From: a candidate division WOR-3 bacterium
GTDB lineage: Bacteria; Hydrothermota; Tepidihabitantia; Tepidihabitantales; DTDR01
NCBI GenBank assembly: GCA_025060715.1
Contig: JANXBG010000001.1
Span: forward strand, 30,345 to 94,344
Reading direction: 5' to 3'
DNA: 64,000 nt
The position numbers were made by a program, and so were the translations under genes. The notes under the pieces were generated by a model. That model saw nothing but the letters and a program-made list of their open reading frames with translations, was not told where the DNA came from and did no database searches. Shown piece after piece: positions 30,228 to 52,134 of this stretch. How positions within the stretch are numbered: position 1 is the first letter of the stretch; each line of letters starts with the position of its first letter.

Positions 30228-31337
30228 ATGATTTATCCTTGTGAAAGGATGAACAAATTAAAAATTAAGATCTTTGGAATTGGTGGAGGCGGTGGTAATA
30301 TTTTAAATACTTTAATAAACTACCATCGCCAACTAAATTTTCAACTTGATAATATTTGTTTTGAATATTGCGCTCTTAATACTGACATAATCTCTTTAAA
30401 AAACTCCTTGGCAATTAACAAAATTCAATTAGGTAAAAATTTGACTCAAGGATTTGGTTCGGGAGGGAAACCAGAAATTGGTGAAGAAGCAGCAATCGAG
30501 AGTGAAAAAGAGATAAGAGAAAAAATTAAAAATACCGATTTGTTAATACTAATCTCTTGTTTAGGAAAAGGTACCGGTAGCGGAGCTACTCCCAAAATTG
30601 CTGAATGGGCAAAAGAAGAAAACATTTTAACATTGATAATGGTTGTTAAACCTTTTAATTATGAAGGTAATATAATTAATAAAATTGCTAAAAATTCCTT
30701 AGAAAAAATTGAAAATTTCTTTTCTTCAATTATTGTGGTTTCTAATACTCAAATAAAAAATAAATTAGGGAACGTTAGAATGGAAGAGGCTTTTTCTTTT
30801 ATAAATGGGATGTTAGCAGTAGGTCTCACCGATCTGATGAAGGTAATTGATAATTCTCATTTAATTGGTATTGACTTTGCTGATATAAAAAATATGATTA
30901 ATGAAAAAGGAAGAGGTCTGATTACCTATGGCGAAGGAGAAGATGAAGAAAAAGTTTGTGAAGCATTATTTAATTCACCTTTGTTTGATAACAATATTAA
31001 GTATGCTAAAAATCTTCTTCTTTGGGTTTTCGGAAATGAGTGGGTAACCTTAGAAACAGTAAGTAGAATTTGTGAAAGGATTTCTAAAAAAGTGAACGGC
31101 AATACCAAAATTCAGTTCACTTTTTTGAAAGATAAGAAGATGAGTAAAAAAATCAGAGCAGGATTTTTTGCCACTGGACTTTTTAAAGAAGCGATTGATG
31201 AGTGGGAAAAGGATGTAATTTTAGAAAAATTACAAGAAGATAAGATAGAAAAGGCATTAGAATTGCCTAATCCGATAAAAAAAGAGATAGATAAGAATAA
31301 TATGAGTTTACCAACAATATTAAGAATGTTATTTTAA
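30228..31337 (+). CDS. ftsZ: Cell division protein FtsZ
   Basis: IKIFGIGGGGGN and GKGTGSGATPKIAE tubulin signature; SD AAGGAGGG upstream. Confidence 0.9.
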   Translation: MIYPCERMNKLKIKIFGIGGGGGNILNTLINYHRQLNFQLDNICFEYCALNTDIISLKNSLAINKIQLGKNLTQGFGSGGKPEIGEEAAIESEKEIREKIKNTDLLILISCLGKGTGSGATPKIAEWAKEENILTLIMVVKPFNYEGNIINKIAKNSLEKIENFFSSIIVVSNTQIKNKLGNVRMEEAFSFINGMLAVGLTDLMKVIDNSHLIGIDFADIKNMINEKGRGLITYGEGEDEEKVCEALFNSPLFDNNIKYAKNLLLWVFGNEWVTLETVSRICERISKKVNGNTKIQFTFLKDKKMSKKIRAGFFATGLFKEAIDEWEKDVILEKLQEDKIEKALELPNPIKKEIDKNNMSLPTILRMLF

Positions 31338-34138: not shown

Positions 34139-37111
34139 TTAAAAATAAATTCGGGAAGAAAAGTTTAATTTTATCTCTTTTTCTTTAAACCCTTCTTTTA
34201 AATAGTTAAACTCCCAATTGAAAGCGAGATTTTGGTTTATATTTTTAGTAATGAGAAAAGTAATATTATAAGAAAAGCCTTTTGGTTCATAATAATTTAA
34301 TTCTAAGGGCAAATCCTCTTGGGGATAAATTCGGTAGATTATTTCTAAAAGGGTATTTAAGTAAAAGTCTTTTAGGATTTTGCTATTTTTTTCTAAATTT
34401 AGAGAAATTTTTTTAATTAGGTAATCTTCTCTAAAAGGTAAAAGATATTGATAATAAAGAAAGGAAATGCCCGGTTTTAAATTTAAATTATAATTCTCTT
34501 TAAATTCTAAAAGATTATAAAATCCATAATTTTTCTCTTTTTGGAAATAATTTTCTCTCTTTTTCTTTTCTCCTTTTTCTAATTGAAAAATTCCTGTCAA
34601 GGTTAATAATTCTGATAATTCTTTTTTGAGAGAGAGAAAATTTTCTATTCTTTTATTTTTGTAGTTTTCAAATATTAAATTCTCCTCTTCTTGTTGAGAA
34701 TAATTTATTTTATAATTTATTGTTAAATTTTCTTTAAAATGATAGTCGGTTAAAAATTGGCATTCTAAGGTTTTTGGAGAAGCGAAAGTGGAAAAGAAAT
34801 TTAGTTTTAATTTTTTTATTGGCTGCCAAAGAAGATTACCTTTTGTTTCCATTTTTAAAACCCTTTTGCCCTTTCTTAAAGGAAGGATTTCTTTCAAATA
34901 TTCACCAGAAGGGTCGAGATAATATTCATTGGTTATGGTATCTTTTGAATAATTACCTTCTCCTTTTTTCACTTTGATAAATCTTATCTCATAGGAGACC
35001 TCTTCTTCATTAATAAGCCTTTTTAAAAAGTTAAGTTGAAAAATGTTTTTGAAAGAATAATTGAAATTAAAATCAGAAAAGAGTGAGTTTTCTAAAAAGC
35101 CAATGAGAAAGGAAGTATAAGGGTTATTTTCATTGGTAATCCCAAATTTGGTGATTTTCCTTTTTTTGATTAAGGGTTTTCTTTCTTTTTCTATCTCATA
35201 ATTTAGGAAAGTTTTACTTTTCTTAAAATAAAAATTGATACCAAAAGTGTGAATAAGAAAATGTTTATCATTATCAATCTGGGAGATAAAAGAATAACTG
35301 GGAGCAAAAAAACGATAAGTTGGTGAGGTGGAAAAATTGAAGATTTTTTTGTTAGGATAATCCTTTTTAAAAGAAAGTTCATTAAAAAGAAAGTTAAATT
35401 TATTGAAACCAAAATAATTTAAGCCCTTTTCTTTTTTTATTATATTTAATTGGTTTAAAAAATTTAAATATCTATTAGGAGAAAGATTTATTTGAAAGGT
35501 TGTTTTATTTTTTAAAGGAAAGTTGATAAATTCTTCATTTTTAAGTTGATTAAGCAAATACTGATTTCTAAAAAGGGTAAGGTTTTTGAAAATAAAGGAA
35601 AATTTTTCTTTCTCATAAGAAAGAGAGAAATCGGTTCCATAACCATAAGGGTTGGTATCGCCATAAGGAGAGAATAGATTTTCATCTCGCTTATTAACAA
35701 TTCCACCAAACTGAAATTTTAAATTCTCCTTTAAAGGTATTTCCAAATTTATAGAGGTAAAGAGGTTTTCTTTTGGTAGTTTTATTTTGGAATAGGGGAG
35801 ATATCTTCCTTTATTTTTGCCAACATAATAATAACAATTTTTTATATTATCATAATTATAATCTCCCAAACTTTCGCCAACAAAGGTAAAATCTACTAAA
35901 TAACTTCCCTTATTTTCGCCAACATAAAAAAATATCTCACCAATTTTTTCATAATCCCCTTTATTTTTACCAACATATTTGGCGGAAGTTAAATAAGCCT
36001 TTGTGGTATCATTACCAATTTTTTTTAGATAATTCTTTGTTTCCTCATCAAAGAGCTCTTTTTTATTTTTATCCTTTTCCCAATGCCAATTAAGATTAGT
36101 TTTTATTGGCAAGCGAGAACTTGAAAGATTTATATAATAATTATCTTTTTCATAAATTTCTTCTTCATATAAAAAATCTATCTCAATAAAATTGCGGGAA
36201 GTAATAATTCGGCGATTGGTGAAGATTATAAAACCAAGCTCATAATCAATTAAATAATCTTCATTATCTCCCCTTTTTAATAAATTGCCATCTAAATAAA
36301 CCCTTTCACTATTTTTTAGAATTTTGATTGATTTATCCTTTTTTAGATAATAAGGTCCTTGAATAAAATCTTTACCATAAAACCCAATCTTTTCATATTT
36401 AAAAGGAGTTGTTAAATAATGGAAATAAAGTGTTTCATAAATATTTGTTTGAGAAAGAGAAAGACCAATACCATAAGAACTAACCTTTCCAAAATTAAAA
36501 AAATCGGCCTCCTTTTTCTGGTTGCCAAAAGTGAAAGAGATACTTTTGGTTTTCATCTTTAAATAAGAATTGTCCAATTCTTTTAATAAAAACCCTTCTT
36601 CACTATTTTCCTTACCATTAAAGGAGCCTTCAAAATTTATTTCATTAATATTGCCTTGGAGAGAAAAATTTGTCTGTTGAGAAAAATTTACCCCTTCCTT
36701 GGTATGATAATTCACCTTAAACTCCTTTTCTCCTTCAAAGATAATATCCGAAGAGACATTTTGAGAAATAGTATCATCATCTTTTTCTAAAAGAGAAAAA
36801 GAATCGTTTTCTATTTTTCTTACAACAATAGGGGATAAAGGATAATAAGAAAAGGGAAGATAAAAATAGGTAACTTTAAGAAAAGAAGAAAGCAAATTGG
36901 GCAATCTTTTAATTTCAATAATTCCTTTTTCATAATCAATAGAATAATCATCCTTTTTTAAAAAATTTTCTTGAAAATAAAGAGTTTCCGAATTTTTAAT
37001 AATGGGATAATCTTTAAGATAAATTATTAAAGAACTATCATTTATTACAAAAGTTTCTTCTCTTCTCAAATTAGGAGGGAGAAAAAAACAGAGGAAAATA
37101 AGAAGACTCAT
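34139..37111 (-). CDS. Large (990 aa) hypothetical outer-membrane beta-barrel-type protein with internal YVGKNKG repeats
   Basis: N/Y/F/K-rich; C-terminal ...NFSSRIYF (aromatic terminus typical of OMPs); three YVG(K/E)NKG(D/S/R)Y repeats near residues 380-440. No family recognised. Confidence 0.5.
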   Translation of the reverse strand: MSLLIFLCFFLPPNLRREETFVINDSSLIIYLKDYPIIKNSETLYFQENFLKKDDYSIDYEKGIIEIKRLPNLLSSFLKVTYFYLPFSYYPLSPIVVRKIENDSFSLLEKDDDTISQNVSSDIIFEGEKEFKVNYHTKEGVNFSQQTNFSLQGNINEINFEGSFNGKENSEEGFLLKELDNSYLKMKTKSISFTFGNQKKEADFFNFGKVSSYGIGLSLSQTNIYETLYFHYLTTPFKYEKIGFYGKDFIQGPYYLKKDKSIKILKNSERVYLDGNLLKRGDNEDYLIDYELGFIIFTNRRIITSRNFIEIDFLYEEEIYEKDNYYINLSSSRLPIKTNLNWHWEKDKNKKELFDEETKNYLKKIGNDTTKAYLTSAKYVGKNKGDYEKIGEIFFYVGENKGSYLVDFTFVGESLGDYNYDNIKNCYYYVGKNKGRYLPYSKIKLPKENLFTSINLEIPLKENLKFQFGGIVNKRDENLFSPYGDTNPYGYGTDFSLSYEKEKFSFIFKNLTLFRNQYLLNQLKNEEFINFPLKNKTTFQINLSPNRYLNFLNQLNIIKKEKGLNYFGFNKFNFLFNELSFKKDYPNKKIFNFSTSPTYRFFAPSYSFISQIDNDKHFLIHTFGINFYFKKSKTFLNYEIEKERKPLIKKRKITKFGITNENNPYTSFLIGFLENSLFSDFNFNYSFKNIFQLNFLKRLINEEEVSYEIRFIKVKKGEGNYSKDTITNEYYLDPSGEYLKEILPLRKGKRVLKMETKGNLLWQPIKKLKLNFFSTFASPKTLECQFLTDYHFKENLTINYKINYSQQEEENLIFENYKNKRIENFLSLKKELSELLTLTGIFQLEKGEKKKRENYFQKEKNYGFYNLLEFKENYNLNLKPGISFLYYQYLLPFREDYLIKKISLNLEKNSKILKDFYLNTLLEIIYRIYPQEDLPLELNYYEPKGFSYNITFLITKNINQNLAFNWEFNYLKEGFKEKEIKLNFSSRIYF

Positions 37112-42583: not shown

Positions 42584-43132
42584 ATGGAAAGAGAAGAAGC
42601 TTTAAAATTGGTATCTGAATATATTAAAAACGAGAATTTGAAAAAACATTCTCTTGCAGTAGAAGCTTGTATGCGAAAACTGGCAAGATATTTTAATGAG
42701 AATGAAGAAAAATGGGGGTTATGCGGACTTCTCCACGATTTAGATTATGAAGAAACTAATAAAAATCCAGAAAAGCATGGCATTAGAACTATAGAAATTT
42801 TGAAAGAAAAGAATTTTAATGATCCAGAGATTTTAAATGGAATTCTTGCCCATTGTGAAAAGAAGCAACCCGAAAATAATTTAGAAAAGGCAATATACGC
42901 AATTGACCCATTAACGGGTCTGATAGTGGCTGCCTGTTTAATGCATCCCGATAGAAAATTGAAAAGTTTAGATGTAAATTTTGTTTTACGGCGCTTTAAA
43001 GAGAAAAAATTTGCTAGTGGTGCCAACCGGGAACAGATAAAAAAATGTGAAGAACTGGGGCTAAGCTTAGAAAAATTTATTGAAATCTGCCTTTTAGCAA
43101 TGCAAGAAATAGATAACCAATTGGGTTTATGA
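42584..43132 (+). CDS. HD-domain phosphohydrolase
   Basis: H...HD...D metal-binding pattern ([17 protein letters not shown]). Confidence 0.7.
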
Positions 43133-43986
43133 AGAAAAAAAATTTTCAAGATATTGTGTTAACCTTACAAAATTTTTGGAAAAAGCAAGGTTGCTTAATT
43201 TACTCACCTTATAATTCTGAAGTGGGAGCAGGAACTTTTAATCCAGCAACATTTTTTAGAGTTTTGGATGATAAACCCTGGCGAGTCTGTTATATTGAGC
43301 CTTCTAAAAGACCAAGAGATGGAAGATACGGTAAAAACCCTTTAAGGGTCCAACAGTATTGGCAACTCCAAGTGATTTTAAAACCAGCACCAAAAGATAT
43401 TCAAAAGATTTATTTAAAAAGTTTGGAAGCGATTGGTGTTGATTTAAAGAAAAATGATATTAAATTTATTGAAGACGATTGGGAATCGCCAACTCTGGGA
43501 GCTTGGGGCGTCGGCTGGCAAGTGGAACTTAATGGTATTGAAATAACCCAATTTACCTACTTTCAACAAATGGGCGGTTTAGACTTAAAAATTATACCCG
43601 TAGAGATTACTTACGGATTAGAAAGAATCGCTATGTTCTTACAGAAAGTGTTTTCTATTTTCAAAATTGAATGGAATGGAACCTATACTTGGGGTGATTT
43701 ATATCTTCAAAATGAAGAGGAATTTTCCTATTTTAATTTTGAAGAGGTTATTCCCGAGGATTATTTAAAATTATTTAATTTTTATGAAAAAGAGGCAAAA
43801 AGATTATTAGAAAAAGGTTTAGTCTATCCGGGATATGATTATGTAATTAAATGTTCCCATATTTTTAATCTTTTGGAAGCAAGAGGAATTATTAGTGTTT
43901 CGGAAAGGGTAAATTATATTAAAAGGGTTAGAGATTTAGCAAGACTTTCAGCAATAAAATATTTAGAAAAAGTAACCTCCCTTTAA
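43129..43986 (+). CDS. glyQ: Glycine--tRNA ligase alpha subunit
   Basis: [41 protein letters not shown] is highly diagnostic. No glyS follows. Confidence 0.9.
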
Positions 43987-44018
43987 TCTCTTTCATTTAT
44001 TTATTTAAGTTTTTGAAT

Positions 44019-44075
44019 ATCAAGGATTTATCTTGATTTTCTATTATTGACATTTTTAAAATTAAATATAAAATA
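44019..44075 (+). promoter_or_regulatory. Inverted repeat ATCAAG-N7-CTTGAT followed by a TTGACA-N16-TAAAAT promoter for the EPS operon
   Basis: The IR at 44019-44037 may also terminate glyQ. The track's TTG 'start' at 44047 is actually the -35 hexamer; the real ATG is 44101, behind a GAGGA SD. Confidence 0.4.
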
Positions 44076-44100
44076 TTTTACTTCTATTGAGGACTGGGCT

Positions 44101-45123
44101 ATGGAAATGAATCTAATAAAGACCGGCATTGAAGAGGTTGACAATATTTGGGGTGGATTTAATCTTGGTTATGGTTATTTCTTAATTTCGGAAAAAGAAG
44201 AGATAAATAGAGAAATTCTTCTAAAATATGTCAATAGAGCTTTGAACAACAATCAGAAAGTTTTATATTTCACCTTTTTACCGTGCGAAGATTTTTTAAA
44301 AAAAGCAAAAGAAATTATTCTAAATATGGATGAATTTGTGAGAAGAGATTTATTTTTTATTCATTTTGTTAATCCGGAATTTTTAAAAATAAAGGATGAT
44401 AAAAAGATAATTCTTGCTTTAGCTTCTTTAAAAAAAATTTTAGTTAAGGAAAAAGCAAATCAAATAGTTGTTGATAATTTTAGTTTTTTAATTAGATTTG
44501 AAAATTTAGAAAAATTTTATAAGGAGCTTTTTGAGTTTTTTATGATGTTAAAAGAATATTCCTACATTGGCTTTTTTTCTTTAACAAAAGAATTTGTTGA
44601 AGAGAATAATTTGATTTTTTCTTATTTAAAAGAAATATCTGCCGGATTAATCTTTTATGAAAAAGATACTTATTTTTTATTTTCTCGTTTTTCTCATCGT
44701 GAAAGAATTTTTAGAAAAGAAGAATTTTCTATCCCTGAATTTCCGAAAGATTTAGCCGAACAAGATAGCTACACTGGACTCTACAATTATCAAGGATTTA
44801 AAAAGATTTTATCTAATTTGACTGAGAAAAAAATTAATTTTTCTCTCTTTGGTTATCAAATCTTAACCCCCTTAGAAGAGCATTTAAAAAGAATTTTTCT
44901 TTACCGGATAACCAAAATTTTAAAAGAAAAGGGGATAAGAGTGCCAGCAATGCGTTACCAAGATAAAGTTTATTTATTATTTTTAGATGACCAAGAGAAG
45001 TTGGAAGAGTGTAAAAGAGTCATTAATGAAGAAGAAATTAGCGGCGGGATAAAGATAGCAAATTTTATCTATCATTATCCAAAGGATTTTCAAACAAGTG
45101 AAGAGTTGGACAGGATTTTATGA
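44101..45123 (+). CDS. KaiC/RecA-like pseudo-ATPase domain fused to a degenerate GGDEF-like domain (BcsE-like candidate EPS regulator)
   Basis: N-terminus IKTGIEEVDNIWGGFNLGYGYFLISEKEE resembles the KaiC/RadA loop preceding Walker A, but GxxxxGK(T/S) is replaced. The C-terminus DSYTGLYNYQGFKKIL...FSLFGYQI...MRYQDKVYLLFLDD...ISGGIKIANFIYHYP follows a GGDEF domain, with GGDEF replaced by QDKVY. First gene of the EPS operon. Confidence 0.55.
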   Translation: MEMNLIKTGIEEVDNIWGGFNLGYGYFLISEKEEINREILLKYVNRALNNNQKVLYFTFLPCEDFLKKAKEIILNMDEFVRRDLFFIHFVNPEFLKIKDDKKIILALASLKKILVKEKANQIVVDNFSFLIRFENLEKFYKELFEFFMMLKEYSYIGFFSLTKEFVEENNLIFSYLKEISAGLIFYEKDTYFLFSRFSHRERIFRKEEFSIPEFPKDLAEQDSYTGLYNYQGFKKILSNLTEKKINFSLFGYQILTPLEEHLKRIFLYRITKILKEKGIRVPAMRYQDKVYLLFLDDQEKLEECKRVINEEEISGGIKIANFIYHYPKDFQTSEELDRIL

Positions 45124-46679
45124 AATTTCTTTTGATTATTTTTATGCTTTTTTCTAAAGATTTAGAAAAAGCAAGAGAATTATATGAGAAAGGAATATAT
45201 TTAGAAGCAATGTATTATTTAGATAAATACTTAAAAAAGAAACCAAATGATAAAGAAGCCCAAAATTTGAAAAGAAAAATTATTTCCCAATTGAATTCAA
45301 AAGATTTGATAAAAGGAATTGAGTCAGACCATAATTTTGTTAAACCCAAAAAAGTAGATAAAATAATTAAAAAGAAGAAAAAGAATCCTTCAGAAACATT
45401 ATTAAATGCTCAGAAGGCAAAAGAAGAGGGAGATTATTTTAAAAGCCTTACTCTTTATGAAAATATTTTTAAAAAGGATACTACTAATAAAAAAATTCTT
45501 TATGAAATTGCCCAACTGAGTAATTGGTTAGGATTTTTTAATAAGGCAATTTTTTATTATGAGAAATATTTAAGTTATTTTCCTAAGGATAAAAGGGCCC
45601 AGTATGAATTAGCCTTGGTTTATAGTTGGAAAGGTAACTATGAAAAGGCCTTACACATTTTAAAAGATTTAGAAAAGGAAACAAGTGATATTAGAATTGA
45701 TTTAGCTAAAGCAAGAATTTATAAATGGCAAAAGGATTATGAAGGTGCCTATAAAATTTATCAAAAATTAAAAAACTCTTATCCCGAAAATGAAGATATT
45801 TTAGTAGAATATGAAGAAGTAAAAGGAATAATTGAAAGAGAAAGAAAAAAAGAAGAAAAAGATAGAATACCTTATTCTTTCTTGCCAATATTTTCTTATC
45901 AACAGACCTCAGAGAATTGGCAAAGGTTTTTGTTAAAATCTTCTTTTCAATTTAATTGGGATAGATTGACTGCTACTCTTTTTTATGAATGGCAGCAATG
46001 TGAAGAGAAAGAAACTTTAAGGATGATAAATAAAATGGGCTTTAAAAATCGCATTAATCTTTTAGAAAATCTTTATTTTACCTTTAATACCTATTTTTTA
46101 GCGATAAAAGAAAGTGATGATTTGATTATTTATGGTGGTGGATTTAACTATCAAACCCCAAAATTAATGTTAAATTTAGAATATAACAAAAAGCCCCTGT
46201 GGGAAGAGGTTTATAAAATAAATACTTGTTATCGTTTAATAACAACCGATGCCCTTTTAGGATTAGCTTATTATCAACCCTTTAAATTTCTTGGTCTTGA
46301 AGGGAGTTATCAATATGGCATTTACAGTGATGAAAATGAATTGAATAATTTAAATTTCAAATTAATTTTTTTACCCTTGAATAATATGAGATGGGGTTAT
46401 CATTATTATTTTCTAAATTATCTTTTAGAAAAGGAAGAATATTGGTCACCAAAATTTTATGAAGTTCATTCAATATTTTTTAATGTTTTTGTTAGAGATT
46501 TTGAAATATTTTTTCAATTGGGAAAACCAACGGATTTTCACTTTTTAGAAAAAAATTTCTCAATGGCGCTAAGAATAAAATTAATAAAAGATTTTTCTCT
46601 TTTAATAATGGGTAGATACGGTGAAACTTATTATTACAAAATTGGAGAAGGAAGTATTGGTTTTGAATATTTATGGTAA
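45120..46679 (+). CDS. TPR-repeat + C-terminal beta-barrel outer-membrane export protein (PgaA/BcsC/PelB-like, miniaturised)
   Basis: N-terminal signal peptide. ~250 aa of TPR-like repeats (e.g. YELALVYSWKGNYEKALHIL), then an aromatic-rich beta region ending ...GSIGFEYLW. ATGA-coupled to the upstream gene. Confidence 0.55.
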   Translation: MKFLLIIFMLFSKDLEKARELYEKGIYLEAMYYLDKYLKKKPNDKEAQNLKRKIISQLNSKDLIKGIESDHNFVKPKKVDKIIKKKKKNPSETLLNAQKAKEEGDYFKSLTLYENIFKKDTTNKKILYEIAQLSNWLGFFNKAIFYYEKYLSYFPKDKRAQYELALVYSWKGNYEKALHILKDLEKETSDIRIDLAKARIYKWQKDYEGAYKIYQKLKNSYPENEDILVEYEEVKGIIERERKKEEKDRIPYSFLPIFSYQQTSENWQRFLLKSSFQFNWDRLTATLFYEWQQCEEKETLRMINKMGFKNRINLLENLYFTFNTYFLAIKESDDLIIYGGGFNYQTPKLMLNLEYNKKPLWEEVYKINTCYRLITTDALLGLAYYQPFKFLGLEGSYQYGIYSDENELNNLNFKLIFLPLNNMRWGYHYYFLNYLLEKEEYWSPKFYEVHSIFFNVFVRDFEIFFQLGKPTDFHFLEKNFSMALRIKLIKDFSLLIMGRYGETYYYKIGEGSIGFEYLW

Positions 46680-46680
46680 A

Positions 46681-48063
46681 ATGAAAGAAAGGAAGTTTTT
46701 TATCACCTTAATTCTTTTGATAATTATTATAATTGGTTGTATTTATCTTTTATCTTTTATTAAAGAGAAAATTAATTTAAGTTATCCTCACATTTTTATG
46801 TTAAGTTTAACAGTTCTCTTACTCTCTTTTTTTATCTTGCTACTTTTCCGTTATTTAATAATTCTTATTCTCTCCCTCTCTGCCCATTTTCGCTATAAAA
46901 ATAAATTACCTAAAATAGAGGATTTAAAAACTGTCTCAATCATTATCCCTGTTTATAATGAGGAAAAAATTTTGGCAACCGTGATTAATTCATTATTAAA
47001 TTTAAATTATCCAAAAGAGAAGTATGAAATTATTATTGTTGATGATGGTTCAAAGGATAATTCTTATCAAATTGCTTATCAATTTTTGAATAATAAAAAA
47101 GGGGTAAAATTAAAATTGTTAAGCCAGACGAATCAGGGAAAGGCAAAAGCATTAAACCGAGGAATTTCCGAAAGTAAAGGTGAGGTTATTGTTTGTATTG
47201 ATTCTGATTGTGTTTTAACAAAGGATTCTTTGATTTATGGAATAAGACATTTTCAAGATGAGAAAGTTGGAGCTGTTGCCGGAAATGTGAAGATTTGGAA
47301 TCAAGATAAAATTTTTATGAAATTACAAGCCTTAGAATATATGGAAGGTTTAAATTTTACCCGTCAGGCATTAAGTTTTCTAAACAAAGTTAATATCGTA
47401 CCTGGGGCAATTGGATTTTTTAAAAGAGAAATTTTCCAAAAGGTTGGTTTATATAACGAAAATATTTATGCCGAAGATTGTGATTTAACGTTGAGAATAT
47501 TAAAAGCTGGTTATAAAGTTGTTTATGAACCAAAGGCAGTAGTTTATACTGAAGCTCCCGAAAGCATAAGCTGTCTTTTTAAACAGAGATATCGTTGGAC
47601 CCGAGGTATTTTGCAAGCCGTAAGGAAAAATAATCATCTTCTTTATCATTCCCACTCTTCCTTTTCATTAATTTTAAGTTATCTCTTATTAATTTATGAA
47701 GCCTTTTTCTGGCCGGCAATGAATTTAATTGCCCATCTCTTTTTCACTCTCTTAGCCCTTCTTTATGGTTTTATCCCTTTTCTTTTTATTTGGTGGTTTT
47801 CTTTAACCCTCTTAGATTTCAGTTCTGCTTGCTTTGCTTATGTGAGTGATAAGAAAAGTGAAAATAATACTTATAAAAATAAAAAAATTATTTTCCTCTA
47901 TCTACCTTTTTTAGTTTTTCTTTATCGCCTTTTTTATCTTTTATTGATTGATACGATTAAGGTATTTGCTTTCTTAGAAGAAGCTTTAAATTTAGAAATG
48001 GGCTGGCAGAGAATAAGAATTACTGGTAAGCTTAATGGCTATTTAATAAAAGAAAAATTATGA
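46681..48063 (+). CDS. Family-2 processive glycosyltransferase, PgaC/IcaA/NodC-like polysaccharide synthase
   Basis: N-terminal TM helices; SIIIPVYNEE...DDGSKDNS...QTNQGKAKALN...IDSDC...EDCDLT...QRYRWTRG (QxxRW); C-terminal TM helices. No PilZ domain. Start ATG 46681, right after the upstream stop. Confidence 0.75.
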   Translation: MKERKFFITLILLIIIIIGCIYLLSFIKEKINLSYPHIFMLSLTVLLLSFFILLLFRYLIILILSLSAHFRYKNKLPKIEDLKTVSIIIPVYNEEKILATVINSLLNLNYPKEKYEIIIVDDGSKDNSYQIAYQFLNNKKGVKLKLLSQTNQGKAKALNRGISESKGEVIVCIDSDCVLTKDSLIYGIRHFQDEKVGAVAGNVKIWNQDKIFMKLQALEYMEGLNFTRQALSFLNKVNIVPGAIGFFKREIFQKVGLYNENIYAEDCDLTLRILKAGYKVVYEPKAVVYTEAPESISCLFKQRYRWTRGILQAVRKNNHLLYHSHSSFSLILSYLLLIYEAFFWPAMNLIAHLFFTLLALLYGFIPFLFIWWFSLTLLDFSSACFAYVSDKKSENNTYKNKKIIFLYLPFLVFLYRLFYLLLIDTIKVFAFLEEALNLEMGWQRIRITGKLNGYLIKEKL

Positions 48064-48254
48064 GAGAGATAATCACTATCCTTTCCGCAATTGTTTTGGG
48101 AGTTACTTTAATTACTTTGATATTTTCTTTAATAGTTTATATTTTATTTCGTTTAAAAATAAATAAAAGAGAAAATTTAAAAAGCGAAATAACAAAAGAG
48201 ACAGAAGAGGAGGTTTTTATTCGTTATCAACCAAAAGGAGATGAAAAAATTTAA
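48060..48254 (+). CDS. Small single-TM membrane protein (PgaD/IcaD-like accessory candidate)
   Basis: 64 aa with one TM then a charged tail. ATGA overlap with the synthase stop; overlapped by the next gene's start. Confidence 0.45.
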   Translation: MREIITILSAIVLGVTLITLIFSLIVYILFRLKINKRENLKSEITKETEEEVFIRYQPKGDEKI

Positions 48255-49926
48255 TTTCTGGTTTTTTCTTTTAATTCTCTTCTTTTTTTTATTATTTCTT
48301 CTAACAGCCTTAGGGATTACTAAATTAATAATAAAAAGACCCGATTTTTATCAAGTAGTCAAGGAAGAGGAAGGTTCTTTTTTCACTTATGATACTTTAG
48401 ATTTACCCTTTTTAAAAGAAGATTATTTACCATTAAAAGGTTATATAATTATTAATAAAAACTTTATTTTTGATAACGAAATAAAAATTTTGGAGAAAAT
48501 ATTAAAAGAACTTTTGGGGTTTGAGTATCAAATAATTGACGAAAAAGATTTTGAAAAATTGAATGAAAAAGGGATTATTATTTTGTTAGAAAAGACAGAG
48601 TATGATGTAAAGATAAGTGAAAAGATTAAAGAGCGAGTATATTTAGGCTGGGGAATTTTAATAATAAAAAATCCAAAGACAAAAGAAGGAATCTCTTTAT
48701 TAAGTCATATCGCTGGAGTTATTCCGATAGAAAATAGTAGAATAGAATACCAAGAAGTTTTTTTGAAAGGAAAGACTCCATTAACCTTTAATATGAAAGC
48801 AGGCGACTTTTTAGGCATTTTTGGTGAGAGGTCATATTTTTTAAAACCAGTAGAAAAAAGAGCAAATATTTGTGGTTATTATAAATTTAGTGATGAAGCA
48901 ATTGTTTATGGTTTTTATAACAAAGGAAGATATGTTGCTTTTGGTTTTTCTTTGAATAGTTTAACGAGCGATTCTTTTACCCAAAAAAATATTAAGATTT
49001 TATTTAAAAATATAATAAATTGGTTAACCAAAAGGCCGGTAGTGCTATTAAGTTATTGGCCCGAGAATAAAGAATATGCTTTTATTTTTAGTTGCGATGT
49101 AGAGCACCAGAGTGAAAATTGGCATAAAATTAGAGAAATAGTAAAGGATGGTACTTTTTTCTTTCTAACAACTGAGTTGAAAGAGTTTGATAAGGAAGAG
49201 ATAGAAAATATTGAAATTGCTCTTCACGGAGAAGAGCACGAACCTTTAAAAGGAAAGGATTATAAGAAGCAGGAAGAAATAATTTTTAAAGGAAAAAATT
49301 ATTTAGAAAAGAAGTTAAAGAAAAAAATATTTGGTTTCCATCCACCCCTTTTGATGTATGATAGTCTGACTTTGGCAGTTCTTAAAAAATTTCAATTTCT
49401 CTATTTACTTACCGAATACCAATTAGGACTTCCCTTTCTTCCCTATTTTTCTTCAATAATTTCCATTCCCCAAACAATCCCCGATGATTACGATTTGATG
49501 ATAAGGAACAGAATCAAAGATAAAGATAGCTTATTGATTTATTTTATGAAATATATTGAAGATTTGAAAAGAATAAATGGGCTAATTGTTTTTAGTATCC
49601 ATACCCATTTATTGGGAAGTAAGGATTATCAATCGGTAATTAAAGAGATTATTGATTTAATAGAGAGTGATAAAAATTGTTATTTCGCTAAAGCAAAGGA
49701 TATCGCCCAATGGTGGTTAAAAAGGTCAAAGATAAAAATTGAATTGAAAGAGAATGGTTTAGATGAGATAACGATAGAAAACTTAAATTCTGATAATATG
49801 GAAGAGATTATATTAATATATTACCCTCCAACTAATGAAGTATTTGAAAAAATAATTACCATTCCTATTAAAAATCTAAGAAGCAAGGAAAAAAGAAAAA
49901 TAATTATTACTTATAAAAATAGCTAA
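48241..49926 (+). CDS. Membrane-anchored polysaccharide deacetylase (CE4/NodB-like C-terminal domain, unknown N-terminal domain)
   Basis: N-terminal TM; CE4-like motifs in the C-terminal half: FIFSCDVEH (MT1-like), ALHGEEHEP (HxxxH, MT2), FGFHPP (MT3-like), DDYDLM (MT4-like), IHTHLL (MT5-like). Confidence 0.5.
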   Translation: MKKFNFWFFLLILFFFLLFLLTALGITKLIIKRPDFYQVVKEEEGSFFTYDTLDLPFLKEDYLPLKGYIIINKNFIFDNEIKILEKILKELLGFEYQIIDEKDFEKLNEKGIIILLEKTEYDVKISEKIKERVYLGWGILIIKNPKTKEGISLLSHIAGVIPIENSRIEYQEVFLKGKTPLTFNMKAGDFLGIFGERSYFLKPVEKRANICGYYKFSDEAIVYGFYNKGRYVAFGFSLNSLTSDSFTQKNIKILFKNIINWLTKRPVVLLSYWPENKEYAFIFSCDVEHQSENWHKIREIVKDGTFFFLTTELKEFDKEEIENIEIALHGEEHEPLKGKDYKKQEEIIFKGKNYLEKKLKKKIFGFHPPLLMYDSLTLAVLKKFQFLYLLTEYQLGLPFLPYFSSIISIPQTIPDDYDLMIRNRIKDKDSLLIYFMKYIEDLKRINGLIVFSIHTHLLGSKDYQSVIKEIIDLIESDKNCYFAKAKDIAQWWLKRSKIKIELKENGLDEITIENLNSDNMEEIILIYYPPTNEVFEKIITIPIKNLRSKEKRKIIITYKNS

Positions 49927-50026
49927 TATTGAAATCAAGAAATTAGAATAGATACCATATAGTATCCTATACAGTCCCCTATAATAATATAAATAATTTT
50001 TTATTATAATTGAATATAATAAAAAA

Positions 50027-50971
50027 TCAATATTCTTTCTCTTTCTTTTCTGAAATCTTTTGAATAAGTGTATAAGATTTTCTAACAAACCAGGGAAACT
50101 CTTTATATTTTTCATACCATTTATTTAGCCATTCCTTTGTTTCCTTATCGTTTAAATTACCACTACCAATTGTTAAATTCTCAATTTGGTATTCGGGATT
50201 ATTTCTAATTTGTGAAAAGAAAGTCTCTTTAAAAAATTTACCAATAAGGGCAGCAGTTTTTACTTCTAAATATTTTTCATCAGCCTTTCTCTTAACAACA
50301 ATTTCCACTCCTTTTTTTGCTAAATCAATTAAAAAATTTTTCAATTTTTTACCAACACCATAATCATCAATAGTAATACGCAGATTTTTTAAATCTTTAC
50401 CATCAGTCAATTTTTTTAAAATTGATAGATAACCAATATCCATTAAATGATTGATTTTATATTTATCAATTGATAAGGGCGGAATCTTTTTGCCAACAAA
50501 AATTAAACCATCTTTTTTATAAGATAAAATTCTTTTAAATATCTCCTGCCAATAAGAAAGATTATGATTCTTTTTGATATTAATACTATTAATAATTTCT
50601 TCCAAGGAAGAAAAAAGAGCTTTCGGAATTAAAACACCAATTAAAAATAATGGACCAAATACCTCCCCTTTGTTTGTTTCATCTAAACCTATCCCAAAAT
50701 CCTTGGTTAAAGGAACAAAAAAAGAGCCAGCAATCTTATTTATTTCTTCCCAGATATCAATAACTTCTTTTGACTCTTTTGTTAGTGTGGAATATAAAGT
50801 TCCGGTAGAATAGTAAGTAAAAATTATATCCTTTAATTTTATCCGCCAAATTTCATAAGGAGAATTAATTTTTTCCTCTTCGCCTCCTTTTTGAATTAAA
50901 AGGGATTTGATTTTTTCTGCCTTCTTTTTATTAACAAACCATTTTCTGCCAATTAGAATTCTTTTTATCAA
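50027..50971 (-). CDS. RNase HIII/HII-like fold protein (possibly divergent rnhC)
   Basis: GIGLDETNKGEVFGPL resembles the RNase H2/H3 G-x-DE-x-G-K/R-G motif; KRKADEKYLEVKTAALIGK resembles the conserved C-terminal KADSKxxxVAAASIIAK block. The third acidic catalytic residue (DSK) appears substituted (NHN). Confidence 0.4.
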   Translation of the reverse strand: MIKRILIGRKWFVNKKKAEKIKSLLIQKGGEEEKINSPYEIWRIKLKDIIFTYYSTGTLYSTLTKESKEVIDIWEEINKIAGSFFVPLTKDFGIGLDETNKGEVFGPLFLIGVLIPKALFSSLEEIINSINIKKNHNLSYWQEIFKRILSYKKDGLIFVGKKIPPLSIDKYKINHLMDIGYLSILKKLTDGKDLKNLRITIDDYGVGKKLKNFLIDLAKKGVEIVVKRKADEKYLEVKTAALIGKFFKETFFSQIRNNPEYQIENLTIGSGNLNDKETKEWLNKWYEKYKEFPWFVRKSYTLIQKISEKKEKEY

Positions 50972-52134
50972 TAATCGTAAATCCTTTTTTCTCCTTCAAT
51001 CTTTTTAATTTCGGTAATATCCTGAGTTACTTCCATACAGCCTAAATATTCACCTTTTTTATCACGGACAGCAAAATAGCGAATATGAACCAATTTTCCT
51101 TGATAGGAAATCCAAAATTCAGCAATATCCCTTTTTTTACTTTTAAAATCGCTCAAAATTCTTTCCACAATATGAATACTCTTTTGGGGATGGCATTGTT
51201 GAACCTTTCTACCCAAAACTGCTTTGGTGCGTAAAAATATCCTTTCCTTTGATTGATTAAAATATCTAACAATATCATCCTTATCAACAAAGGTAATGTC
51301 AAAAGGTAAAGTATTTAAAAGGGCCTCCAATTCTTCTAAGGAAAAAGAGCCAGTTTCAAAATTAATCGGTAAAATTTCTGAGATTTTCTTTTTCTCCTCT
51401 TTTATCTCTTCTTTTTTAATAATCTCTTGAGGGGTAAAACAGCAATAACCAATTTCATCAAATTCCTTTCTTATCTCTTGCCATTCTTCTTTTCTTATTA
51501 CTTGTAAAGCAGTTGGAAAAAGGATTTTATTCTCTTTATAAAAATGGGAATTTAGCATTTCAAAAAGCTCCTTTACCTTCTCTTTTAAAGGATTTAATTC
51601 TCTCTTTTCCCATAATTGATAAATCTCTTTTTTGATACTTCGGATTTTATCGTGTTCCATCCACATTATTGCTGGTGGCTGGGTTATCCCATGCTTTTCT
51701 AAATAGGGGAAAAGAACATTCTCTTCTCTTAAATAATGAGATTCCGAATCTTTAAAATGATGGATAATTTCTTCTAATTTTTCGTTTATTTTATTTTCCA
51801 AAAGGGCTTCGTAAAATTCTTTGGCATTTATTAAAAGAAATTTATGTTCGGTCATTAAAATATGAATTGGATGGCCCGCTTCGGTTAGAATCTCTTCCTT
51901 TTCCAATTCTTCTTCAAAAAGGGCTAAATGGAGAGCACAGAAACTTTGGATTTCCTCTCTACCCATTCCTTCCCTAATCAATTCTTCTTCAATCTCAGCA
52001 ATTGCTTTTGGTGTTAAGCCTTTTAAAGATTCCTTAAATTCTTCTTTCAATTTTTTAATATCTTCACCTTGGTGAATCCTTTTTATTATCTCTTTAATTA
52101 ACTCTTTTTTATTTTTTCCAAAAATTTCACTCAT
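50968..52134 (-). CDS. DUF438 / hemerythrin-like / PAS-domain sensor protein
   Basis: Hemerythrin HHE-type motifs (HPIHILMTEHKFLL; HYLREENVLFPYLEKHG) and a C-terminal PAS-like block (ITFVDKDDIVRYFNQ...VQQCHPQKS...). N-terminal region matches my memory of DUF438. Confidence 0.6.
   Translation of the reverse strand: MSEIFGKNKKELIKEIIKRIHQGEDIKKLKEEFKESLKGLTPKAIAEIEEELIREGMGREEIQSFCALHLALFEEELEKEEILTEAGHPIHILMTEHKFLLINAKEFYEALLENKINEKLEEIIHHFKDSESHYLREENVLFPYLEKHGITQPPAIMWMEHDKIRSIKKEIYQLWEKRELNPLKEKVKELFEMLNSHFYKENKILFPTALQVIRKEEWQEIRKEFDEIGYCCFTPQEIIKKEEIKEEKKKISEILPINFETGSFSLEELEALLNTLPFDITFVDKDDIVRYFNQSKERIFLRTKAVLGRKVQQCHPQKSIHIVERILSDFKSKKRDIAEFWISYQGKLVHIRYFAVRDKKGEYLGCMEVTQDITEIKKIEGEKRIYDY

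Follow-up and report, generated by a model that had tools for sequence, protein, structure and literature searches.

The 64,000-nucleotide stretch of DNA analyzed here ("the window"; positions 30,345 to 94,344 of contig JANXBG010000001.1) comes from an uncultured hot-spring bacterium of the candidate phylum WOR-3. It is a low-GC (~29%) housekeeping region of a diderm genome, with a dnaK operon, a dcw-like cluster, ribosomal genes and lpxC/fabZ/lpxA. Between positions 44101 and 49926, it also contains five + strand open reading frames (ORFs) with overlapping stops and starts. The first of these, referred to below as gene X, encodes a cytoplasmic protein of 340 amino acids in which a KaiC-like domain that has lost its ATPase motifs is fused to a degenerate domain of the GGDEF fold; the other four resemble components of a synthase-dependent exopolysaccharide (EPS) machine. 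The five genes are as follows:

44101-45123, + strand: gene X (ATG at 44101, stop codon at 45121-45123), KaiC-like pseudo-ATPase fused to a degenerate GGDEF-fold domain, as judged from profiles, structure models, Foldseek and the ratio of nonsynonymous to synonymous substitution rates (dN/dS)
45120-46679, + strand: protein of 519 residues matching tetratricopeptide repeat (TPR) families, with an N-terminus resembling a signal sequence and, at the C-terminus, a probable outer-membrane part (PgaA-like role)
46621-48063, + strand: membrane-embedded processive family 2 glycosyltransferase (GT2) of 480 residues, PgaC/IcaA-like by NCBIfam, Pfam GT2 and PDB matches
48060-48254, + strand: protein of 64 residues with a single transmembrane segment, in the position of PgaD/IcaD, without a family match
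48241-49926, + strand: membrane-anchored protein of 561 residues resembling family 4 carbohydrate esterase (CE4) polysaccharide deacetylases (PgaB-like role; weak PF01522 match, 8.7e-5)

The best NCBIfam match of the GT2 protein is TIGR03937 (PgaC/IcaA), with an E-value of 2.5e-62 and a score of 211 bits that lies below the equivalog cut-off of 422; BcsA-type models score far below PgaC/IcaA, and the relatives in the PDB are BcsA and hyaluronan synthases. The PgaA TPR model matches the TPR protein at 1.3e-7, so that a CE4 protein and a TPR exporter are both present, and the orthologue of the CE4 protein at another WOR-3 locus (L005) matches PF01522 at 7.9e-19. Neither PilZ nor BcsB was detected when the cassette proteins were scanned with Pfam and NCBIfam. 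An initial annotation, made from the sequence alone, had described X as the leader of a Pga-like rather than Bcs operon, and this label appears reasonable given the PgaC/IcaA match of the GT2 protein, the CE4 deacetylase, the TPR protein and the absence of PilZ and BcsB. The cassette resembles PgaABCD/IcaADBC in its PgaC/IcaA-type GT2, small transmembrane partner, CE4 deacetylase and TPR outer-membrane protein, but differs in that the GT2 falls short of the PgaC equivalog cut-off and the small protein has no PgaD match. We know of no Pga or Ica system with a cytosolic subunit that is KaiC- and GGDEF-like.

The N-terminal half of X is recognizable as a KaiC-type domain. The KaiC family PF06745 matches residues 6-188 with an E-value of 8.5e-7 and 29.0 bits, just above the cut-off of 26.6; the NCBIfam KaiC match is at 1.1e-7, and KaiC chains in the PDB match at 2e-6. 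Foldseek searches with the full-length AlphaFold2 (AF2) model, which has a predicted local distance difference test (pLDDT) score of 80.8, retrieved KaiC, FlaH and T7 gp4 helicase at 6.6e-10 to 1e-7, in agreement with a RecA-type fold. Pfam, NCBIfam, PDB sequence and Foldseek matches thus confirm the KaiC/RecA-like domain proposed by the initial annotation, with a size of ~200 residues instead of the ~230 that it had given. The features of this half and of the linker are the following:

44116-44688, + strand: KaiC/RecA-fold domain, residues ~6-196 (PF06745, AF2 strands and helices at residues 25-195, Foldseek)
44188-44211, + strand: former Walker A motif, SEKEEINR, against GATGTGKT in KaiC and GPVNSGKT in the long forms of the family described below (alignments)
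44278-44283, + strand: former catalytic carboxylate pair, LP, against EE in KaiC and DE in the long forms (alignments)
44473-44475, + strand: Walker B Asp position D125, D in the window, N, S or E in sister sequences, invariant D in the long forms
44689-44742, + strand: short linker of low confidence (pLDDT <50 at residues 197-208), against a Pro/Glu-rich linker of 80-110 residues in the long forms

In the HMMER alignment to KaiC CII, LISEKEEINREILL lies opposite LVSGATGTGKTLLV and FLPC opposite FEES, which places N36 at the position of the Walker A lysine and L60-P61 at that of the catalytic Glu pair. The protein therefore contains no Walker A sequence of the form GxxxxGK[T/S] and no catalytic carboxylates, and its Walker B position varies between D, N, S and E within the clade. 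The loss of Walker A, with SEKEEINRE at the place of the P-loop, had been read from the sequence, and the alignments to KaiC and to the long forms uphold that reading. KaiC itself and the single-domain KaiC-like ATPases (FlaH/ArlH, PDB 4YDS) share fold and family with the N-terminal domain of X, but bind ATP via an intact Walker A motif; FlaH is a regulatory partner of a membrane machine. The former P-loop segment shows no drift and is among the most invariant parts of X: L28-I29-S30-E31, E33, N36 and E38-Y43 are the same in all 11 sequences compared (63-100% identity).

The C-terminal domain contains the following features:

44743-45120, + strand: degenerate GGDEF-fold domain, residues 215-340 (profiles, hhalign, domain model, Foldseek)
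44764-44787, + strand: DSYTGLYN, corresponding to the N-terminal GGDEF signature DxLTGLxN, with D, T, G and N invariant family-wide
44932-44943, + strand: GIRV (G278-I-R-V281) at the I-site position, in the register of the merged profile
44953-44973, + strand: RYQDKVY, opposite RYGGEEF of active cyclases in the merged-profile alignment; signature lost

Neither Pfam, in which GGDEF (PF00990) gave no match even at E<10, nor NCBIfam detected a GGDEF domain in the C-terminal half of X. A family profile that includes distant relatives matches PDB 6KHU, a degenerate Thermotoga maritima "DGC", at 4.9e-5, and the degenerate GGDEF domain of FimX at 0.023. The link of X to PF00990 is only transitive, via 6KHU (P0016 in our set), which matches that family at 1.5e-9; P0013, a distant relative of X, matches Pfam GGDEF at E 0.01. 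In a direct comparison by hhalign, the X family and the Thermotoga GGDEF family align with 97% probability and an E-value of 1.1e-10, and the profile merged from the two reaches active cyclases (4WXO at 1.8e-4, with GcbC, WspR, DosC and TM1788 at weaker E-values). The merged-profile alignment sets DdfTGlyN opposite DELTGLFN and pvgRYsdkifllfl opposite LARYGGEEFVLLL, and leaves the X family with a six-residue gap, and the residues FGYQI, at the substrate- and metal-binding loop DxDhFKriN of the cyclases.

Since the PDB matches of the full-length model were swamped by KaiC, the C-terminal domain was modelled and searched with Foldseek separately. The resulting model has a pLDDT of 91.8 and a predicted template modelling (pTM) score of 0.85, and 21 of its 22 top PDB matches are GGDEF domains, with TM-scores of 0.60-0.73, rank 22 being a second SiaD chain. 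6KHU comes first (1.2e-5), followed by CC_0091, XCC4471, LapD, DosP, TM1788, DgcZ, SiaD and others. As the profile, hhalign, domain-model and Foldseek results agree, the assignment to the GGDEF fold, complete with its N-terminal DxLTGLxN signature, is sound. The comparison of each half by Foldseek, suggested in the initial annotation, thus leads to KaiC/FlaH for the N-terminus and to GGDEF domains for the C-terminus. The annotation had taken the C-terminal half to be GGDEF-like with the aRyGGDEFvill region replaced; family profile, hhalign and Foldseek agree with this, and the motif strings that it quoted are all found where it had placed them. The domain retains DxxTGLxN and the RY preceding the signature, and is without the metal-Asp region, the substrate loop, the GG[DE]EF motif (QDKVY stands for GGEEF, and the DxD/FK loop is deleted or replaced) and the RxxD I-site. 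Judged by these motifs, it is dead as a cyclase.

The T. maritima protein 6KHU/P0016 (190 residues) is the closest solved structure and sequence relative of the C-terminal domain, at 25% identity. It shares with the X family the string GRYSD, which replaces RYGGDEF, and, past the last strand, a YPED motif, but has an N-terminal coiled coil instead of the KaiC domain, is recognized by the Pfam GGDEF model, and is encoded outside any EPS locus. These similarities suggest that 6KHU/P0016 and the WOR-3 family represent a subfamily of their own among the degenerate GGDEF domains of thermophiles. The P0016 gene (L015, 8001-8573) adjoins a gene of the EPSP-synthase fold (MurA-like), and our literature search found no paper on 6KHU.

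Homologues of X are few. An exhaustive search of 1.84 billion representatives, using a profile of residues 205-340 built from the close clade only, gave six clusters (50% identity) at E<=0.001: the cluster of X itself (P0005), four clusters of true distant relatives (P0011-P0014) and a spurious one. The latter (P0015, E 1.2e-5), a repeat protein of 646 residues matching in four short stretches and otherwise giving unrelated Pfam noise, was rejected as a low-complexity/repeat artefact. In public databases, family members are labelled just "hypothetical" or "ATPase domain-containing". The close homologues (63-100% identity, 338-340 residues each) have the same synteny, and those with named sources are all from WOR-3. 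By scanning genomes in GTDB and metagenomes from JGI for the pattern DxxTGLxN, we obtained six distinct distant members (L005/L023, L013/L022, L014, L021, L024 and L025), again from WOR-3 where named, which are 28-33% identical to X and considerably longer, at 433-473 residues.

These long forms match PF06745 at 1.5e-21 to 5e-23. They retain a Walker A motif, GP[VSA][NDS]SGKT, an invariant Walker B Asp and an invariant Glu after strand 2 ([DPN]-E-R), which in four of these six proteins forms an acidic pair with a preceding D. Their RecA fold has an additional hairpin at its C-terminal end, and their Pro/Glu-rich linker comprises 80-110 residues. The short form found in the window clade lacks Walker A, the catalytic Glu, the extra hairpin and the long linker, and its Walker B Asp is not invariant. 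The motifs of the long forms were already present in the ancestor of the KaiC family, which makes the short form the derived one, and by these alignments an ATPase has turned into a pseudo-ATPase within one orthologous line. As far as the motifs tell, the window protein cannot bind ATP via Walker A, whereas its long-form WOR-3 relatives probably can. The description of X in the initial annotation as two dead domains joined together is accordingly correct for the window clade, but does not extend to the deeper WOR-3 homologues, whose ATPase motifs are all intact.

The order X-TPR-GT2-small protein-CE4 is kept at every locus with an X homologue and enough DNA (L005/L023, L013/L022, L014, L021, L025 and the close clade), also in the WOR-3 lineages in which the flanks are unrelated and X is only ~30% identical. 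At L005 the neighbors are ExbBD/TonB and a protease, at L013 fumarase/TrpB-like genes and DnaE, and at L014 GlgC and cystathionine synthase. Between the window and the long-form loci, identity is 28% for X, 26-33% for the TPR and CE4 proteins and 45% for the GT2; X thus diverges at a rate similar to that of its TPR and CE4 partners, as expected of an integral component. Compared with six orthologues, X has an overall dN/dS of ~0.1-0.2, at dS values near saturation, with 0.09-0.28 for residues 1-200 and 0.07-0.15 for residues 215-340, and the 10 or more orthologues at 63-83% identity contain neither frameshifts nor stops. Both halves of X are under purifying selection. The start of the TPR gene overlaps the stop of X by 4 bp (ATGA), an arrangement by which X is, to judge from the sequence, translationally coupled to the next gene of the cassette.

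Upstream, gene X is separated by a gap of 114 nt from glyQ (43129-43986), and two candidate expression signals precede it:

44047-44074, + strand: promoter-like site TTGACA-16 nt-TAAAAT, matching the consensus at 11 of 12 positions, in the 114-nt gap after glyQ
44089-44093, + strand: Shine-Dalgarno-like GAGGA, 7 nt 5' of the ATG at 44101, read from the sequence

The promoter-like site is the best-scoring sigma-70-like site within 43800-50200, but is a consensus match only, in AT-rich DNA where 48 sites were found against 35 expected. The program-made ORF list had begun gene X at TTG 44047; we rejected this start, as the TTG belongs to the -35 hexamer of the promoter-like site, all close homologues begin at the ATG, and GAGGA lies 7 nt ahead of that ATG. 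The coordinates 44101-45123 adopted in the initial annotation agree with the sequence. The NCBI annotation of an identical protein, in a "candidate division WOR-3 bacterium" MAG, starts from the second Met (338 residues). Taken together, the purifying selection, the retention of the cassette in unrelated contexts, the overlapping codons and the promoter-like site with its Shine-Dalgarno sequence favor the view of X as an accessory subunit of the machine.

Several further observations concern the cassette and its surroundings. Two genes upstream of it lies a gene for a 182-residue HD-domain protein with weak HDOD similarity (42584-43132, + strand), which is syntenic in the close clade only and in which a motif scan gave no HD-GYP string. 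Immediately downstream, and convergent with the cassette, are genes for a DUF438-hemerythrin-PAS sensor-like protein (50968-52134, - strand) and for RNase HII with an N-terminal extension of ~90 residues (50027-50971, - strand), syntenic in close WOR-3 relatives but not at the long-form loci. Elsewhere in the window, a 990-residue ORF (34139-37111, - strand) has no Pfam match at E<1e-5. In the window clade, all five cassette proteins are shorter (comparison with L005, 10001-17281; L013, 3525-10324; and L014, 9980-16795): X has 340 residues against 433-473, the TPR protein 519 against 618-655, the small transmembrane protein 64 against 102-123 and the CE4 protein 561 against 617-690. The small protein of L013 has a Pro/Glu/Lys-rich tail resembling the X linker, and the shortening could reflect either general streamlining or the co-evolution of two disordered regions. 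In P0013 (L016, 10001-10804; 267 residues), which is encoded outside EPS cassettes, the GGDEF-like domain of the X family is fused to the C-terminal half of a TIR domain of the CAP12/Pycsar type. The ORF after it (L016, 11343-12512; 389 residues) begins ILILEIRGFTKLS, like the start of a class III nucleotidyl cyclase, and has no Pfam match; the P0013 gene may be rearranged or chimeric.

A known protein with a comparable architecture is BcsE. Its N-terminal domain was predicted to be RecA-like by fold recognition, with the model overlaid on KaiC and the Walker A region compared with those of real ATPases; bcsE leads its operon, and the protein, whose GGDEF domain is dead, is a hub in the assembly and regulation of the GT2 synthase (PMC7439463). 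The parallel drawn in the initial annotation is thus well founded (a KaiC-like N-terminus and a dead GGDEF domain in an operon leader), and BcsE is a precedent for a protein of this kind as leader and assembly/regulatory hub of an EPS operon (PMC7439463). The BcsE-like architecture is real: both proteins are cytosolic and encoded by the leader gene of an EPS operon, with a RecA/KaiC-like N-terminus, predicted in BcsE, and a dead C-terminal GGDEF domain. The two also differ in several respects. BcsE has an additional degenerate REC domain, binds c-di-GMP through an RxxD motif (R415-D418) and lacks α1 and the P-loop of GGDEF domains, and its partners are BcsQ, BcsR, BcsF and the PilZ-bearing BcsA; X has neither the REC domain (no REC-like segment was found in its model) nor RxxD, possesses a fuller GGDEF core that keeps DxxTGLxN, and sits with a Pga-type machine. 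PelD, PssE and YdaK likewise are inactive GGDEF proteins encoded in synthase-dependent EPS operons, where they are needed for activation of the GT2. All three require an intact RxxD, and YdaK a membrane anchor as well, whereas X is soluble, fused to a KaiC-like domain and devoid of an I-site. PelD is membrane-anchored.

BcsE, PelD, PssE and YdaK all bind c-di-GMP via an RxxD I-site located five residues upstream of the GGDEF signature position, and in X this position reads GIRV. The long forms have GRPV, SKPA or LEPT there, followed by P282, which is invariant in the family, so that RxxD is present at this site neither in X nor in the long forms. The only conserved string resembling RxxD is R285-Y-Q-D288 (RYSD in the long forms and 6KHU), which lies at the active-site hairpin and not at the I-site. 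Homology between the X family and Escherichia coli BcsE was not detectable by hhalign (0.1% probability), and the 50 best structural matches of the C-terminal model include neither BcsE nor PelD. With the I-site absent and no homology, the function of BcsE is not transferable to X, and the role of c-di-GMP receptor proposed by the initial annotation finds no support. A scan for GGDEF, EAL, HD-GYP and PilZ by motif and Pfam gave none, either in the window or across WOR-3 loci totalling ~410 kb; it had little power and is weak evidence, because these loci are redundant and short and the window contains mostly housekeeping genes. Our literature search found nothing on KaiC-GGDEF fusions or on EPS and c-di-GMP in WOR-3.

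What, then, could be the function of X? A receptor of the BcsE/PelD type, in which the dead GGDEF domain binds c-di-GMP and signals to the synthase while the pseudo-ATPase serves as a scaffold, is a tentative possibility: architecture and operon position parallel those of BcsE, degenerate GGDEF receptors recur in EPS operons (PssE, YdaK, PelD), an external receptor would make sense for a GT2 without a PilZ domain of its own, and R285-Y-Q-D288 is conserved, albeit at the active-site hairpin. Set against these points are the I-site sequences GIRV and GRPV with an invariant Pro where Asp is expected, when all four characterized receptors need RxxD, as well as the lack of BcsE homology and of BcsE or PelD among the 50 best structural matches and, more weakly, the missing c-di-GMP motifs in the window and the other loci; binding of c-di-GMP by a non-canonical site on X is possible. 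Another nucleotide might be sensed instead, with the GGDEF pocket (Asn of DxxTGLxN, Arg of RY) binding a guanine nucleotide such as GTP, or the former P-loop binding a ligand, which would tune polymer synthesis to nucleotide status. The family-invariant N229, R285 and Y286 match active-site positions of GGDEF domains, as known from PleD, and the former P-loop is strongly conserved rather than decaying. We nevertheless consider both this mode of sensing and the tuning that would follow from it improbable, as the substrate-binding loop DxDhFKxiN carries the six-residue deletion, the metal Asp and the motif Glu are gone, and the second guanine-binding Asp, nine residues past the Asn, is not conserved.

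It is still less credible, and indeed very improbable, that the function of X has nothing to do with the polysaccharide genes, or that X is a remnant of the long-form ATPase in the course of decay. The catalytic motifs of both domains are all gone in the window clade, but the dN/dS of ~0.1-0.2 at saturated dS, the intact reading frames of the orthologues, the 4-bp overlap with the next gene and the retention of the cassette in at least five unrelated contexts speak to the contrary, and on dN/dS and conservation the interpretation of X as a pseudogene or relic was rejected. The interpretation that we favor, with a probability of roughly 0.55, is that X is a docking, oligomerizing regulator or scaffold of the synthase, which would have been powered by ATP in the ancestor and would do without nucleotides here, and which would use the conserved face of its dead GGDEF domain as an interaction or ligand surface. 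Three considerations weigh against it: the relative orientation of the two domains in the model is of low confidence (pTM 0.55), the linkage of X to the cassette is known from loci that were found through X itself, and the argument for a conserved surface depends on the sequence register within the GGDEF fold.

Under the scaffold interpretation, X would be an accessory subunit, soluble and without catalytic activity, of a secretion module of the Pga type that is specific to WOR-3, the polymer of which would be synthase-dependent and probably a partly deacetylated polysaccharide resembling N-acetylglucosamine polymers. X would oligomerize through its RecA-fold domain, like KaiC, FlaH/ArlH and the N-terminal domain of BcsE, dock on the GT2 from the cytoplasmic side, perhaps jointly with the small transmembrane protein, and control the assembly or activity of the synthase after translation. 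Such control would have been driven by ATP in the ancestor, and the protein of the window clade would since have become a nucleotide-independent scaffold. A signal, if there is any, would enter via the conserved active-site face of the dead GGDEF domain (N229, K263, R285, Y286, D288) and not via the I-site. A stronger proposal, which we regard as unlikely, is that the combination of a KaiC-type ATPase with a dead GGDEF domain represents a previously unrecognized form of synthase control, gated by ATP or autophosphorylation and independent of c-di-GMP. If that were true, the short and long forms would capture the transition from enzyme to pseudoenzyme in one orthologous lineage, and the KaiC-like N-terminus of BcsE may have arisen by the same route.

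Post-translational control of biofilms acts mainly on synthase-dependent polysaccharide systems (cellulose, Pel, poly-N-acetylglucosamine, alginate) and, to our knowledge, every well-studied case uses c-di-GMP, via PilZ, an I-site GGDEF domain or the PgaCD interface. In a deep uncultured phylum, a Pga-type machine appears to have a KaiC-like ATPase-GGDEF-like subunit without a known c-di-GMP site, most likely an uncharacterized scaffold or regulator of the synthase. This leaves two interpretations, a new ligand site on the GGDEF scaffold or ATP-based control of the synthase. The coexistence of motif-intact long and motif-dead short orthologues provides a natural experiment on the conversion of an ATPase into a scaffold, and may illuminate the origin of BcsE.

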